From positions 57,660,001 through 57,724,000 of the forward strand of contig NC_043010.1 in assembly GCF_006345805.1 (NCBI RefSeq): a DNA stretch of 64,000 nt, written 5' to 3'. The notes below the pieces were generated by a model. The model did no database searches, was not told the DNA's origin, and was given only the letters and a program-made list of their open reading frames with translations. Below, one piece after another: positions 12,464 through 62,069 of this stretch (positions are counted from its first letter, which is position 1; the number at the start of each line of letters is the position of its first letter). The position numbers and the translations under genes were made by a program. This DNA comes from Octopus sinensis (taxonomy: Eukaryota).

Positions 12464-13479
12464 TCTATAGACCAGTTTCCGAAAGCCACCCTAGCCTAAC
12501 TGTGATAAGAACATCCACGCAGTTGTAGTAACACAGCTCTCTCCACTCGCTGACTGTTTTTACTGAATGAACAAATCTTCGCATCACACATCACTCACGG
12601 CTCACACACAAACACACACACACACACACACACACATCACTGGACTACCACTCAAAATACTCCCTCCCCACTCTCTCTCTCTCTCTCTCTCTCATCTCTC
12701 CATTTCTCACTCAATTATTTCTCCCCCTCTCTCACCGTAGCTTCCTCTTTCTTTCTCTATCGCTCTCTGTCACCGTTTTTATGTGCATTTATGCACTTCT
12801 GAGCACACATGTGATGTGTGAGTATGTGTGTGTGAGTGTTTGCACATGTACATGTATGTGTGAATGCATGTGAGTGTATGTTTGTGCATGTATGTGCTCA
12901 TATGTGTGAGCTTGTGTGTGTGTCTAGGTGTGTGTGTATATGTGTATATATACATATATGTAAATGTGTACTTGTGACAATGACTTTGTGTGTGTGCGTG
13001 TGCATTTGTTTCTGTGTGTGGGATTATGTGTCAGCATCTGTCTATGCGTAAGCGTATTTGCACATAGTTGTGTATATCTGTATGTGTCGCCTAAGTTTTT
13101 CTATGCGTATCAAGTGTATATATATATGTTTGACTATAAATATGTGTGTGCGTATGTATATGTATTCAAGTATGTGTATGCTTTTGCTTGTATTCCGGCA
13201 CTTGTACTTGTGTGTGTATGTGTATAACTATCTGTGTTTGCCTGTATGTGTGCCTCTCTGTGTGTGTGTATGTAGAATATTTTTGCTGCTGTTTACAACC
13301 AGACATGTTACGCTCGAGTGTGTGATTTCAGTGCCATTAGTGAGGTCAAATTGGAACTCACAATGCAGAGGCTCACAAAGGGCTTCCTTTCTTGCATATA
13401 CACAAACACACACACACACACACATATATATACACATGTATATATAAATATATATACATATATATATACATATATATAT

Positions 13480-13523
<44 letters not shown>

Positions 13524-13939
13524 CATATATATTATATATATATATGTATACATATACATGTATACATATATACATATTGATATATATATACATGTATACA
13601 TATACATGAATACATTATATATATATATTTATACATATATACATATATATATATACATATATATATATACATATATATATATACATATATATATACATAG
13701 ATATATATACATATATATATACAATATATATATATATACATATATATAATACATATACATGTATATATATACACACACACAGACACACACACATGTATGT
13801 ATGTGTATTTTTCTTATCGAATTGGTGTGTAGTAATGTGTAACTTTTGATGTGAGTGGGTGGTGGGTGCATGTATGTTTGTGTGTACATATACATATATA
13901 AGTGTGCTTATATAAATATTTTTTTATCCATTTTCTCAG

Positions 13940-13990
13940 GTGGAAGGGACTATGTTCATTGCCTTTGTAGACCTTTCATTTGTAAGGAAG
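13940..13990 (+). CDS. Candidate 51-nt exon (VEGTMFIAFVDLSFVRK or GRDYVHCLCRPFICKE)
   Basis: Strong acceptor tttttttatccattttctcag, donor AAG|gtatat, length a multiple of 3, unique sequence between microsatellites. Confidence 0.35.
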
Positions 13991-14250
13991 GTATATGTAC
14001 ACACACACACGCACACATATATATATAGTAGACATGTGTGTTTGTGTGTGTGTGAGTGCAAGTATGTTTGTATGGACACTGGAGGTGCATACATAACTGG
14101 TTATGTACACGTATATATATGTCAGAATGATAGCCTGTAAATACATGCATAACCATAACAAAATTTTTTGATATCTTTGACATGAAGATAAATAGCACAC
14201 ACACACACACACACACACCTTATATGGTATATTAGAATATGATTAGTTTT

Positions 14251-14296
14251 CTATTACTTTAAGTTTCATACTAAAGTGTACAATCATCAGATGACT
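14251..14296 (-). ncRNA. Hammerhead ribozyme motif with weak stem I
   Basis: cat-CTGATGA-tt gtac acttta gtat-GAAA-ctt a aag-TA-atag. Confidence 0.55.
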
Positions 14297-14409
14297 GAAC
14301 TTCAAAAGAACTCATCCATAAATATATTCATTGTACACAGGGTAATGAATAACTTTATTTTGGTTTGGTCTCTGAAATAGAATTCAAACCTTACATATAT
14401 ATATATGTA

Positions 14410-14805
14410 TATTCTTTTATTTCTTATGGTCATTTGACTGTGGCCCTGCTGGAGCACTGCCTTTAGTTGAAGAAATCAACCCCAGGACTTATTCTTTGTA
14501 AACCTAGTACTTATTCTATCAGTCTCTTTTGCTGAACTGCTAAGCTTTGGGGATGTAAACTCATCAACATTGGTTGTCAGGTGATGGTGGGGCAAGGGGA
14601 CAAGCACACACACACACACATAAATATATATATACATACATATACGATGGGCTTCTTTCAGTTTCCATCTGCCAAATCCACTCACAAGACATTGGCTAGC
14701 CTGAGGCTATAGTAAAAGACTCTTGCCCAAGGTGCCATGCAATGGGACTGAACCCGGAACCATGTGGTTGGGAAGCACGCTACTTACCACACAGCCACTC
14801 CTGTG
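14410..14805 (-). mobile_element. Full-length SINE family C: tRNA head, internal (TG)/(TA) microsatellite, CR1-like tail
   Basis: Head 14643-14805; tail 14410-14610 containing (minus strand) gtgctccagcagggccacagtcaaatgac. Confidence 0.85.
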
Positions 14806-14825
14806 CACATATATATATATTATAG

Positions 14826-14856
<31 letters not shown>

Positions 14857-14909
14857 CACACCCACACATACATATATAACATACACACACATATATATAT
14901 ACATATATA

Positions 14910-14952
<43 letters not shown>

Positions 14953-15468
14953 ATATTGGTGTGTCATGAATTTATGGAAATAAATCCCATAAAACTCAAC
15001 AATTTTGTTAAAAATGGAGAAGAGAAAATGTTAAAATGTATAAGTGAATTTTAATTCATGCAGATGATCGTTTCGTACAGAGATATAAAAATTATGCAAA
15101 TTCATGGTGGAATAGAATTAATTGAATTAATTAGATTCATTTAAATTAATTATATATCGCTGTACTCTTTAGAGTAAGAAGTATAAACAAAATTTTTACA
15201 AAGCACTTGAGAAAGGGAAAAGCAGAATAGAATCTAGGAGATTCCTATTTATCCTTATGAGAAAGCAAGGGATATGGGAGTCCAGTTAGGTGTTAACTAT
15301 AACTAAAGGCTGTAAACTACCAGCAAAATAGGAAGAACCAATATTAAAAATGTTTTTTGGAAACCTCCAAATTGAAGGACGAATCTAATTCAACCTTTTT
15401 ATACACACATAAATATGGTATTCTCTATAAACTGAGAAGGCAAGTTAACTTTAACCCTCGGCAACCGG

Positions 15469-15530
15469 GTGACAGTCACTGATGAGGATTAATCAAATCT
15501 GAAATCATCGATGATCTGGCTCTGTGTCAC
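15469..15530 (+). ncRNA. Type I hammerhead ribozyme, canonical core, palindromic stem III
   Basis: gtgac agtca-CTGATGA-ggatt aatca aatct-GAAA-TCATCGATGA-TC-tggct ctgt gtcac; all core nucleotides intact, stems I and II paired, predicted cleavage after 15516. Confidence 0.85.
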
Positions 15531-15606
15531 TTGCTGTAAGGAACTTGTCTCCTTTGTCAGTCATTAGATAAGTGCTTCCCTGTGGCTAAGAGTTGTTCTA
15601 ATTCTT

Positions 15607-15695
<89 letters not shown>

Positions 15696-15719
15696 CATGT
15701 GTGTATCTCTATGAATGTG

Positions 15720-15932
15720 TCTTCATTTGTATTTGTCTTCCAGCATCATTTCAGAACTGGTATTGAATTGTTTATGCTTCCATAACTTAGTAGTTCAGCA
15801 AAAGACATTGATAAAATAAGTATGACATTTACAAAAACATTAAGTACTGGGGGTCAGTTTGGTTGACTAAACCCTTCAAAGTGTTGCCCCAGCATGGCTG
15901 CTGTCCAATGACTGAAACTGATAAAAGACAAG
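15720..15932 (+). mobile_element. SINE family C 3' half
   Basis: cataacttagtagttcagcaaaagac...taagtactggggg...ccagcatggctgctgtccaatgactgaaac. Confidence 0.75.
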
Positions 15933-15999
15933 AGACTTGCCACAAAAGTAGTATTAGAATAAAATAGCCAAATGTGTATCATAATTAATGCAGATACAC

Positions 16000-16950
16000 C
16001 ATGAAAGGCAAATTAAGTGTGGGATTCATCCAAGGATAATATCCCTCATGAATGCTTTGTGTTTCAAACCACAAAGCTTTATCAGTAACCAATGAAAATT
16101 GTCCAGCAGTTTAAATGGTTGGGTATACATTTCTGCTTGATTGTGCTTCGTCAGTAGCATGTACCCATTACCAGCTGCAGGTTAAGGCAAAATACATCAC
16201 TATTAATACAGAAAAAGCAGAAATTGAAAAAAGTGACTGGTATTGCAGAAGTAAATGGTCAAATCAATCGGTTTGGCTGGTCAGCTGAATAAGTTTTAGA
16301 CTTGGTTTATAACATCATGACAGACATTTCAAAAGAAGTTGCTCAATAGGAATATCCCTTGTTCTGAGAATTATGGTGATGCTGATAAAGGACATTATTG
16401 AATATTTTCCTACTTGGCTGTGTTTAGGATTTTGGTGCAAGCAAAGGAATTGGTGATAACCAGTAATTGTAGTTACAAAAATGTAGACATGATCAGCCCT
16501 GGTTAGATCCACCCATATGATACATCATAGACAAGTGGGAATAACAACCTTGACTTGTGGCAGGGATCAAGTTAACAGCTTTCAATGAGGTTAACATGGT
16601 GCCTATCCTTAAGATTACCAGTTTCAACCCTGTCATGAGAGAATGGAGGAAATCAATATGCAATCTTATCTGTCTGGAAGTCAGATTTCATAGCCACCTG
16701 CCAGAACCATATCAAATCATTGGTGTTACATCTCTTATGTATGTTTTAAGCTTCAAGTTACTGTTGAGGGATTTGAGAAGGTGAGGAGCAAGAGGGCCAT
16801 GCTGGCATTGCAGACAATGTCACTATAATGATGTCAGAAAGCATGGGAGTGAAGGTCATCATCCCTGAACCAAAGGAACAACCAGATTCTTTTTGAGGAT
16901 GATGGATGATTAATGGACCAGTTAATCTCTGTGGGATCCGGTTCAGCCTG
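16000..16950 (-). mobile_element. Highly decayed retroelement coding remnant, possibly Penelope-like
   Basis: Non-repetitive, multiply interrupted frames with FNNVLYQ (RT-like) and CLTC/GMN-like traces; weak. Confidence 0.3.
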
Positions 16951-17729
16951 GAATGTTGTTATGAGCAGGGTGGCCATCACCATTGCACGCAACCTCCGTT
17001 ATTGGCTTCTTGTTGTCTTGTTTTGGTTATTAACATTATCTCAATAACCACCAACACTACCACCACCACTACAATGACCACTATCACTATCATCACCACC
17101 ACCCCCATCACCACCACCACTGCCGCCACCACCATGATCACTACCATCACTACCACCATTATCATGACTGCCACCATTCCCACCAACACCCTCATTAGAA
17201 GCAGCAACACCACCACGACCCCCACCCCACCTACTACCACCACCTCTAGCATTACTGTTGTAGTTTAAAATATTTAATTCGTTGAAAGATATTTTCCTAA
17301 TCATTATTAATTTGTTTCTATTTTTTCAATCGATTTTCCATCTCCCCTCCACCACTCCACTACCCATATATAGCCCTCCCTCCCAACATGCCCACCTCTC
17401 CCTAATAGAAACTGAAGATATCTCACTACTATTACACTTTTTTCGGTGTAAACTTGCACATATACATTCTTGCATACACACAGATATATCACACATACAG
17501 AAACACACACGTGTATCCATCCATCCATACATACATATATACATGGACATATACACATCTTCATAGACATGTACATACACACACATGCAAGCAGATATAC
17601 TTACATAAACACACTCAAACACACACACATATATACATACACATGCATACACACACATATACATAGACACATACACACATATGCATACATACTCATAGTA
17701 ACATACATATCTATATCTACATACATATA

Positions 17730-18370
17730 CACACAGCTTTGTGATAGAACTGTCGCTCGTACGCAGTGTGGAAGTTATCAGCCATATCATCAGCAGCTGA
17801 CCCAAAATGTCCGCAAGGCACAATGTTCCCATGAGACATGACATTGCTGCCAAAACCATTTACGCTGCTATCGACAGAGAGGATTGTTCTAGCGGTCATA
17901 GAAATGGTACAGCAAAGCCAGAATTTATTCACACCTTTCAAACAAGAAATAACATTCAAATAAAAACAACAATCCATGACAAACACAACAGACCTGATAT
18001 TGTTGGAGGGGAGGGGCAGGGAACAAACGTCATGCACTGTTGTAGAGGTCAACTGGCCAGCAGATGCAAATATCACTTTGTGCAAAAAGAGAACATCGGG
18101 TGTGAACTTGTGCCACATAGATTTTCTATCAGGCATACAGATTTCCGTTTGCACATATTTTCTTTGGGTATATTCGGCTAAGTAAGAACAGATTTGCAGA
18201 AAAGCCTCAAAGTGCTGTAGTTTTCCAGGAAAGAATAAATCAAAGTGACTTGCATTCTCCAAATCTAATTGATTAGGGGTGCACTGAAGATTTGGAAAAC
18301 ATTTTGAAGGTTCTCTATTTCAGTTTCCTGCAATGAGCCTGACACTATCACATCAGTATGTATGCCATAG
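17730..18370 (+). mobile_element. R4/Dong-like non-LTR retrotransposon 3' fragment (CCHC knuckle and restriction-like endonuclease)
   Basis: VEVISHIISS-x-PKMSARHNVPMRHDIAAK, HNRPDIV, frameshifted to TVVEVNWPADANI (PD-(D/E)xK RLE motifs). Confidence 0.8.
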
Positions 18371-21709: not shown

Positions 21710-22930
21710 TCGTCTTAAGCAGAATTAACACTGATTTAGTTCTGTCTATGCAAAGAGCCAGTATAGTTTTAAGTGAGGTCAAGGGTCAATGGATATGATA
21801 TTCAGTTTGCGGCAAGTTCAGGAGAAGGCCCAGGAGTACAATAAAGGCCTCTATGTGGTATTTGTTGACCTCACAAAAGCCTTTGGCTCAGTATATAGAC
21901 AGGCTTTGTGGAAAGTATTAGCAAAACTTGAGATTCCCAAGCACATGCTAAAGGTCATAGTGTCTCTACATAATGATATGAAGGCTTCTGTTCGAAAGCA
22001 AGGTTCTGTTTTGGCACCAGTATTATTTGCACTAGTTTTTGCAGTAATGTTGGATTGTGCCTTTTCTGATGTAGGATAGAGAAACCAACAGCATTTTGGG
22101 ACTCATTGTTTTCAGATCATCGTGTTCTTGGTGCTCATACCCTTGAGAACATTCAGCACATCATTTATAAATTTGCAGCAGCAGCCAGATGTATTGGTTT
22201 AACTATCAGCATAGAAATGATTGAACTGTTGTATCAGCCACATTCTGGTAACAATCTAGAAATCTTGCCCTGCGTGTTTGTTGAAGCAACACTCTGGAAA
22301 CTGTTGATGCTTTCACATATTTGGGTTCTATAGTAACAAGTGATGCTAAACTTGATAGGGAGGTCCAGAATGGTATTGGAAAGGCCAGGACAGCTTTTGG
22401 GAAGATTCACGATAGACTTTGAAATGCTTGTGATATTTCAATAAGTACAAAAATTGATGTGCCCAAGTCAGTTGTCTTAAGAACTCTTTTATATGGATCA
22501 GAAACCAGGACATCTTATCATAGGCACATCAGTCAGTTTCATATGAGATGTGTTAGGCAAATATGCAAGGCTGGGTGGGATGATAGAGTGAAGAATGGCA
22601 TTATCCTGAAAGTGCGTGGAATATCTCTGGTAGAGAGGCATTCTTGATCAAATCTCAAATGCAATGCTGTGGACACAGTTTTTGCACGAAGAGTGGTCAA
22701 TTACAAAAACAGATCTTTTATGGTCAGCTTGTAAATTCACTCTGCAATATAGACTGATTAAAAGATAACTTGAAATGCTTGAGAATTAGGAAAGAAAATT
22801 TTGAGAATCTTGCAAAAGACCATGCAAACTGAAGAAGAGAGGGTTCTTGCAGCTTCCAAATTTCAAAACCACATCAAAAGCATTTATGGGGAAAGAAGAA
22901 AGGAAACTGACAGAACAACAGTCTTCCAGT
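21710..22930 (+). mobile_element. Decayed RTE-clade LINE reverse transcriptase fragment
   Basis: DMIFSLRQVQEKAQEYNKGLYVVFVDLTKAF, KQGSVLAPVLF, VDAFTYLGS...IGKARTAFG, TLLYGSET; internal deletions and stops. Confidence 0.92.
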
Positions 22931-26160: not shown

Positions 26161-26200
26161 GCATCTGATGAGGTTTAATAAGGTGGAAACATGTCCATAG
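26161..26200 (+). ncRNA. Degenerate minimal HHR; similar decayed motif at 19233-19272 (minus)
   Basis: CTGATGA-ggtttaataaggtg-GAAA-CATG-TC; stems I and II poorly paired. Confidence 0.4.
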
Positions 26201-61904: not shown

Positions 61905-61970
61905 TGGCCGGATAACTGAAGAGATGGGATTTCCACCTCGGCATCCGAAACTCAGAGTTTTATCATGGCT
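61905..61970 (+). ncRNA. Type I hammerhead ribozyme motif
   Basis: gataa-CTGAAGA-gatg...catc c-GAAA-ctc a gag-TT-ttatc; perfect 5 bp stem I, intact core, GUU triplet. Confidence 0.72.
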
Positions 61971-62069
61971 ACCGAATAATTGTCGCATATTACATTTACA
62001 GATGAATTCCTCTATTTACATAATATCGAGGTCTCTTTCTTTCTTTTGTTGTCTTACCATTTTTATCAA

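Follow-up and report, generated by a model that had tools for sequence, protein, structure and literature searches.

Does a hammerhead motif that keeps every catalytic letter still cut RNA, and if it does, which transcript would it cut? The question is raised by a motif at positions 15461–15534 of a 64,000-nucleotide stretch of Octopus sinensis DNA (contig NC_043010.1, hereafter the window), which is AT-rich and holds many microsatellites in a genome of 2.72 Gb. Our answer, which we consider quite likely, is that the motif represents a type I hammerhead in an old, truncated, non-coding copy of a 338-nt unit, and that this unit is likely a non-LTR retrozyme copied by a Penelope-type enzyme; as a monomer the ribozyme would be mostly off, and it would probably serve no purpose for the host.

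The hammerhead and the repeat copy that carries it

A complete type I core is read from the sequence at 15474–15521 on the plus strand, with all defining letters present (C3 U4 G5 A6 N7 G8 A9, G12 A13 A14, A15.1–U16.1, H17). The features of the copy are given below; numbering follows the legend to figure 1 of PMC4209133.

15400–15413, no strand: short simple repeat of TA/CA type next to the 5′ junction, the likely insertion target
15414–15607, plus: single truncated repeat arm (about 194 of 338 nt), without both main 3′ ends and without a second hammerhead
15461–15473, plus: distal extension of stem I, 5′ strand (gcaa 15461–15464, 4-nt bulge, gtgac 15469–15473)
15474–15478 / 15517–15521, plus: stem I, agtca (2.5–2.1) / tggct, with one U.G pair, from sequence and covariation
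15479–15485, plus: catalytic core C3–A9, read from sequence; predicted to pair with 15505–15510 in the monomer
15486–15500, plus: stem-loop II, 5 bp (strands 15486–15490 / 15496–15500) and a 5-nt loop
15501–15504, plus: core letters G12 A13 A14 A15.1, read from sequence
15504–15515, plus: 12-nt palindrome, a 4-bp hairpin in the monomer and a 12-bp helix III in the double hammerhead
15514–15516, plus: AUC triplet, read from sequence, with predicted cleavage after C17 (15516/15517)
15517–15534, plus: 3′ strand of stem I, then a 4-nt bulge with U1.7 (15523), then the distal extension on its 3′ side
15526–15530 and 15531–15534, plus: gtcac and ttgc of the distal extension, read from sequence
15607–15693, no strand: (CA)n microsatellite at the 3′ junction, where the arm stops at a minor end site common to 5 of 84 arms

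Only one motif in the window has stems I, II and III of at least 5, 5 and 4 bp, and none was found in 200 local shuffles searched on both strands, while looser descriptor settings gave 13 motifs in these 200 shuffles. This confirms the hammerhead where the first-pass annotation had placed it, and bears out its description as the best-preserved one of the window. A covariance model of the family found no second convincing copy in the window (the next best match, E 0.027, is a microsatellite); no Rfam family matched the window at gathering score, and no hammerhead was among the 94 matches with E ≤10 in 13000–18000. Elsewhere, a hammerhead-like sequence at 61908–61985 (plus strand) has the core letters, but its stem II is imperfect and its stem III region nearly palindromic, and it fails the strict descriptor; core-like CUGANGA and GAAA words without type I stems occur at 26165 (plus), 31544 (minus) and 2758 (minus).

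Some details of the earlier description had to be revised. The palindrome, given as 10 nt, is present but measures 12 nt once A15.1 and U16.1 are counted. Stem II does have five pairs, but the first one is a G.U wobble and not the usual G10.1–C11.1, the letter at 15500 being a likely product of CpG decay; the G10.1–C11.1 pair is described as highly conserved though not invariant (PMC4209133), and a measured effect of G.U at this position was not found in the literature. The pairs of the extended stem I exist, but the supposed internal loops are one-sided 4-nt bulges. Likewise the gtgac/gtcac helix is there, but it depends on two letters, 15473 and 15526, that are both private to the window copy. 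The letter at 15473 also disrupts the sixth pair of helix I, which is paired in 37 of 56 relatives, and helix I has 5 bp in the window copy and 6 in most relatives. Inheritance of the gtgac/gtcac helix from a subfamily was considered and ruled out: the 17-nt left side has three genomic matches, one of them the window copy, and the other two are without the right-side partner. U is found at 1.7 in 45 of 57 family rows and is unpaired in the window copy, where loop II ends in A and is not a GNRA loop. According to PMC11875169, U1.7 could contact loop II; to judge by its letters, such a contact between stem I and loop II is possible in the window copy.

The first reading had been made without genomic context. 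With that context, the hammerhead is seen as a piece of a fragment from a dispersed retroelement family. The element is built of head-to-tail units of 337–347 nt with one hammerhead each; the majority unit has 338 nt, natural periods are 337, 339, 342 and 347, and the longest open frame has 47 aa. With the window copy as query, 47 matches came from the 40 of 481 candidates that were scored, the long ones having 77–90% identity, and with a natural unit 904 candidate matches were obtained. An exact 19-nt family motif occurs 48 times in the genome (control 0) and is present in 4 of 75 covered sites; extrapolation from this motif count gives a rough estimate of about 900 copies, which rests on BLAST candidates and pattern counts. 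For closer inspection 75 loci were fetched, of which 59 were distinct after removal of 16 duplicates. Arms of at least 150 nt are 71–90% identical to the majority (median 82%, n=65), and the family is therefore old. Sequence lying upstream in some copies lies downstream in others, thus the unit is circularly permuted, and arms follow the fixed period around over as much as 650 nt, with no coding sequence. Four loci carry two same-strand hammerheads head-to-tail, 337–347 nt apart; both cores are intact in none of these four in alignment A1 (57 rows, 10 partial hammerheads left out), and no long tandem array was seen among the loci examined. Core and exact palindrome are kept together in 15 copies genome-wide (control 0), and 8 of 21 cores are intact in loci chosen by an end motif and not by the hammerhead. 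As in retrozyme families, the unit is non-coding, falls within 150–450 bp, has a GC content below 50% and bears one type I hammerhead each. Two further observations concern single loci. L076:1480-1600 holds a more distant relative with an identical hammerhead layout and different stems and 3′ sequence, and at L123:860-1742 a whole two-part insert is duplicated in inverted, near-perfect form with a hammerhead in each half.

Pieces of the 338-nt family are also contained in sequencing runs under three other organism labels. One contig from another organism's run (X3 record 21) covers the 5′ flank and the element with 3 differing letters and 8 gap letters, and the insertion at 15414–15607 may be shared with that organism. 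Run X5, guessed to be RNA, gave 6 contigs, with three short pieces (33–46 nt) on the element and none bridging flank and element. The surroundings of the copy are themselves repetitive: 14960–15390 belongs to a different, very abundant repeat with opposite-strand joints from about 14967 to 15310 in two runs, presumably an element with inverted ends of the MITE kind. Another dispersed repeat, common to many fetched loci, flanks the element in opposite orientations (14410–14805 and 15728–15933), and 21783–22034 (plus) is a reverse transcriptase fragment (Pfam RVT_1, E 3.3e-08) of a broken LINE-like copy.

Covariation and the predicted fold of the monomer

Across the 57 rows, stem cells are paired in 86% of cases against 33–47% in slid controls. 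Position 10.1–11.1 is G–C in 27 rows, A–U in 13 and G.U in 7, 10.2–11.2 is G–C in 43 and C–G in 4, and a two-sided change also occurs at 2.5–1.5. The number of cells with two-sided change exceeded all 500 shuffles and the number of pairs with such change did not (271 of 500); the rows are related and hold few independent events, so that kinship can beat a shuffle control without any structure. The centre of the palindrome was compared in 68 rows, after four further duplicates and all gapped rows were left out, and reads T–A in 37, G–C in 10, T–C in none and G–A in one. This centre is a free loop in the monomer and pairs only in the double hammerhead, therefore its joint change fits a need for the double hammerhead; it is one ancestral event and not 47 independent ones. 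A third centre, CCGG, was seen only as decayed forms in L051 and L054, never intact, and was not counted. Dimer activity is known for hammerheads with a palindromic loop III (PMC4209133, PMC6765202), and the palindrome as a sign of such activity, suggested in the first reading, gains support from the two sides changing together. These data support the motif at 15461–15534 as a real type I hammerhead with functional ancestry.

Descent from a working ribozyme leaves the activity of this copy to be judged, and here folding energies were used, which omit Mg and tertiary contacts. In the best predicted monomer fold of the window copy, core positions 15480–15485 pair with the 5′ half of the palindrome. 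The active fold lies 7.1 kcal/mol above this locked fold in each of four contexts, the shortest of 74 and the longest of 401 nt; at 20 °C the difference is 9.2. In the family majority the active fold is 3.5 kcal/mol above the locked one, in the monomer domain and the circle alike; for the tandem dimer, and for two molecules, the best predicted fold of the majority is the double hammerhead. The double hammerhead of the window copy is predicted 2.0 kcal/mol above its best dimer fold. Private letters of the copy raise the penalty from 3.5 to 5.7 (15473) and to 4.4 kcal/mol (15500). On these models the extended stem I appears to be partly a by-product of decay, and it would support the inactive fold as well. 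A core-locked fold is the best one in 34 of the 57 rows, and the lock is predicted, in different registers, for the majorities of both main subfamilies, the second of which has a CpG-decayed letter.

The main competing explanation, which we regard as unlikely, is that the window copy works efficiently as a monomer and cuts whatever plus-strand transcript runs across it, with help from a stem I/loop II contact, whether or not it is selected. The copy does keep every core letter and the full set of 14 stem pairs, a state found in 9 of the 57 rows, the unpaired U1.7 is available, and AUC is among the fastest triplets after refolding, yet it can trap the core during transcription (PMC1636495). If the core pairing is forbidden, the active fold comes within 0.6 kcal/mol of the best, and it is in Mg and tertiary contacts, outside the energy model, that further help for the active fold could lie. 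Against this stand the energy of the locked fold in every context, the isolated stem III hairpin with no predicted stability, the G.U at 10.1–11.1 and the lost sixth pair of helix I; moreover, only one of nine predicted Xenopus dimers cleaved in vitro (bioRxiv 10.64898/2026.07.22.740005), and no host exon was found in the candidate frames scanned. The designation as most likely active ribozyme is thus weak, as the predicted monomer fold sequesters the core, with the active fold 7.1 kcal/mol above it as compared to 3.5 for the family majority. The copy is predicted to be mostly inactive in monomeric form. At about 1 mM Mg a dilute monomer is unlikely to cleave clearly; if two copies are forced into a dimer at high Mg, some cleavage is slightly more likely than not.

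The prediction invites a second, bolder reading, namely that the palindrome is a selected two-way switch which locks the core in monomer and circle and activates both ribozymes in a tandem transcript. We put this forward tentatively, as one possibility that is somewhat less favoured than its opposite. The palindrome is retained, together with the predicted lock, in both main subfamilies. Among 1024 palindromes tested, the median penalty was 3.4 kcal/mol and the natural palindrome ranked in the top 8.9%, a no more than suggestive position; as any palindrome is penalised by the energy model, the lock could be a by-product.

Insertion footprint, mobilisation and the host

The ends of the inserted arms are not scattered evenly over the unit. 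Two end windows, together 36 of the 338 positions, take 61 of 84 arm ends (22 and 39) and only 4 of 84 arm starts, the commonest fixed 3′ ends being unit positions 247 and 296, about 49 nt apart. Arms lie back to back in inverted orientation at 19 of 59 loci; only six of these two-armed loci have one end of each kind, twelve have one fixed end and one has two alike. A simple repeat lies directly at 46 of the 61 fixed ends, compared to 11% of random flank windows, and such repeats hide any target-site duplications. Fixed 3′ ends, scattered 5′ ends, an inverted copy and simple-repeat targets together make up the footprint of Penelope-like elements, for which published accounts mention a tail set by two internal start sites, targets rich in AT and a truncated copy in inverted orientation (PMC11167929, PMC8557442). 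The 338-nt family is therefore likely a non-LTR retrozyme moved by a Penelope-type enzyme. Near the cut site (within 5 nt) one of 84 arms starts and none ends, so the insertion ends give no direct footprint of cleavage; this lack of boundaries is compatible with a template that was either an uncut multimer or a ligated circle.

A similar 11-nt motif precedes both fixed 3′ ends (unit 229–239 and 280–290, e.g. L009:1051-1500) and is absent from the window copy. It stands beside 56 of the 61 ends, a count that is partly circular since the end windows had been set beside the motif. The motif is a candidate signal for the helper enzyme.

Could the unit instead be a pLTR, the terminal repeat of a Penelope-like element that is autonomous, so that the copies are short truncated ends and no independent retrozyme exists? 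The tail, the inverted arms and the microsatellite targets are Penelope features in either case, the genome does contain GIY-YIG frames of up to 883 aa, and Xenopus retrozymes resemble pLTRs (bioRxiv 10.64898/2026.07.22.740005). Nevertheless, this explanation is very unlikely, as the arms wrap the fixed period without ever reaching coding sequence, and each of the 30 loci retrieved with the end motif aligns to the 338-nt unit. Reverse transcriptase and GIY-YIG families were found in none of 88 frames from the 59 loci of about 3 kb, and the hammerhead is extended and not of the minimal form with a large helix II described for most animal pLTRs. Of 147 GIY-YIG matches in the genome, 30 loci were examined; none showed similarity to the 338-nt unit, and six held near matches to the end motif. 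Long GIY-YIG frames of 780–883 aa, several of them of the identical length of 781 aa, were noted in L085, L086 and others, and are likely a young Penelope-like family of this genome. A retrozyme that depends on a Penelope-type enzyme thus stays the preferred reading.

The expectation that the motif would cut a plus-strand pre-mRNA is not supported: the insert has a single hammerhead, and Pfam revealed no host exon when 169 candidate frames of at least 45 aa were collected and the 150 longest scanned, giving one reverse transcriptase fragment and one sub-threshold match; shorter exons, or a gene that extends across the entire window, may still exist. That the host keeps the copy as a regulatory cutter of pre-mRNA or of a long non-coding RNA is most improbable. 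In its favour, the contig of the other organism spans flank and element, so that the insertion may be shared, and comparison with the majority of the 20 nearest relatives shows one change in 48 hammerhead positions and 14 in 146 outside. This contrast is not significant (p=0.12) even before allowing for the selection of the copy as the best one, and L002 shows 1 of 48 as well. Core and exact palindrome are retained in 15 genomic copies, 8 of 21 cores are intact in the hammerhead-blind sample, and the private changes reduce the predicted activity. In a decaying family of about 900 members, one copy preserved as well as this is consistent with chance; no result points to domestication, and a host function of any kind appears highly improbable. 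The locus is one fossil among hundreds, and the presence of all core nucleotides does not make it active.

Proposed cycle and comparison with known systems

The proposed cycle would begin with a multimeric transcript in which two palindromes form the predicted 12-bp helix III, both hammerheads cut and a monomer is released. By analogy to the known class, the monomer would probably be ligated to a circle. In monomer and circle the 5′ half of the palindrome would, if the folding model holds, pair with the catalytic core and switch the ribozyme off, a step we advance with reserve. The insertion ends make it very likely that a reverse transcriptase/endonuclease of the Penelope type makes its nicks in AT-rich simple repeats, copying from two internal sites that lie about 49 nt apart. 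Two-site priming would then produce the permuted, 5′-truncated and often inverted arms.

Metazoan non-LTR retrozymes have units of 150–450 bp, with 350–390 in mussel and 330 and 350 in axolotl (Cervera and de la Pena 2020, PMC7229834). The octopus family shares with them the type I hammerhead, the non-coding unit, the low GC content, tandem copies and a palindromic loop III of the kind known for dimer activity. In contrast to them, most of its copies are old, dispersed inserts that have one arm or two and span one to two units, and helix III is longer (4 bp in the monomer and 12 bp in the dimer, as compared to 1–2 bp). Cervera and de la Pena propose Penelope-like elements as helper of animal retrozymes. 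In their account most animal retrozyme circles, some mussel ones excepted, are not predicted to be self-blocked by pairing, and the block itself is left open. A circle formed by the octopus unit is predicted to be self-blocked, unlike most of theirs.

Li, Clavereau and Pollet (2026; bioRxiv 10.64898/2026.07.22.740005) regard non-LTR retrozymes as derivatives of Penelope that are not autonomous. Their elements, like ours, occur as monomer, dimer and multimer copies and have a link to Penelope. Their evidence is co-occurrence in vertebrates and pLTR homology, whereas in the octopus family it is the insertion footprint, no homologous pLTR having been found. By their definition an active retrozyme has two consecutive units with complete hammerheads; the window copy falls short of this with one partial unit and one hammerhead. 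The insertion ends thus represent direct footprint support for a Penelope-type mobilisation of animal retrozymes, for which the preprint argues from homology.

Work on Penelope-like elements, namely on Poseidon PAc (Frangieh et al. 2024, PMC11167929) and on Naiad and other EN+ clades (Craig et al. 2021, PMC8557442), describes features that the octopus family shares: a tail set by two internal start sites of reverse transcription, AT-rich or microsatellite targets, an inverted 5′-truncated copy and partial tandems. Unlike the elements covered by these sources, the octopus family is without an open reading frame, its tail measures about 49 nt versus the published 30–40, and a similar 11-nt motif occurs at both ends.

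For the predicted core lock, the closest relative is the AUC trap in the hammerhead of eggplant latent viroid (Carbonell et al. 2006, PMC1636495), where stem III letters likewise pair with the CUGAU core and cleavage is delayed. The viroid trap, as presented there, is transient and was seen in a variant made by engineering, nature being said to avoid it, whereas in the octopus family the pairing is the predicted best monomer fold, comprises six pairs and belongs to a natural type I family. Also unlike the viroid trap, release of the octopus lock by dimer formation is predicted. A literature search returned no paper on such a core lock and none describing cephalopod retrozymes; the supplements of PMC7229834 and of the preprint lay outside its scope and may bear on both points. 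As far as this search reaches, the predicted lock goes beyond published work. If confirmed, it would explain how a circle stays closed while multimers cut, and would represent a simple dimer-gated ribozyme. The switch, if true, would be an RNA-only answer to the question posed in PMC7229834 of how the circles of animal retrozymes avoid opening themselves.
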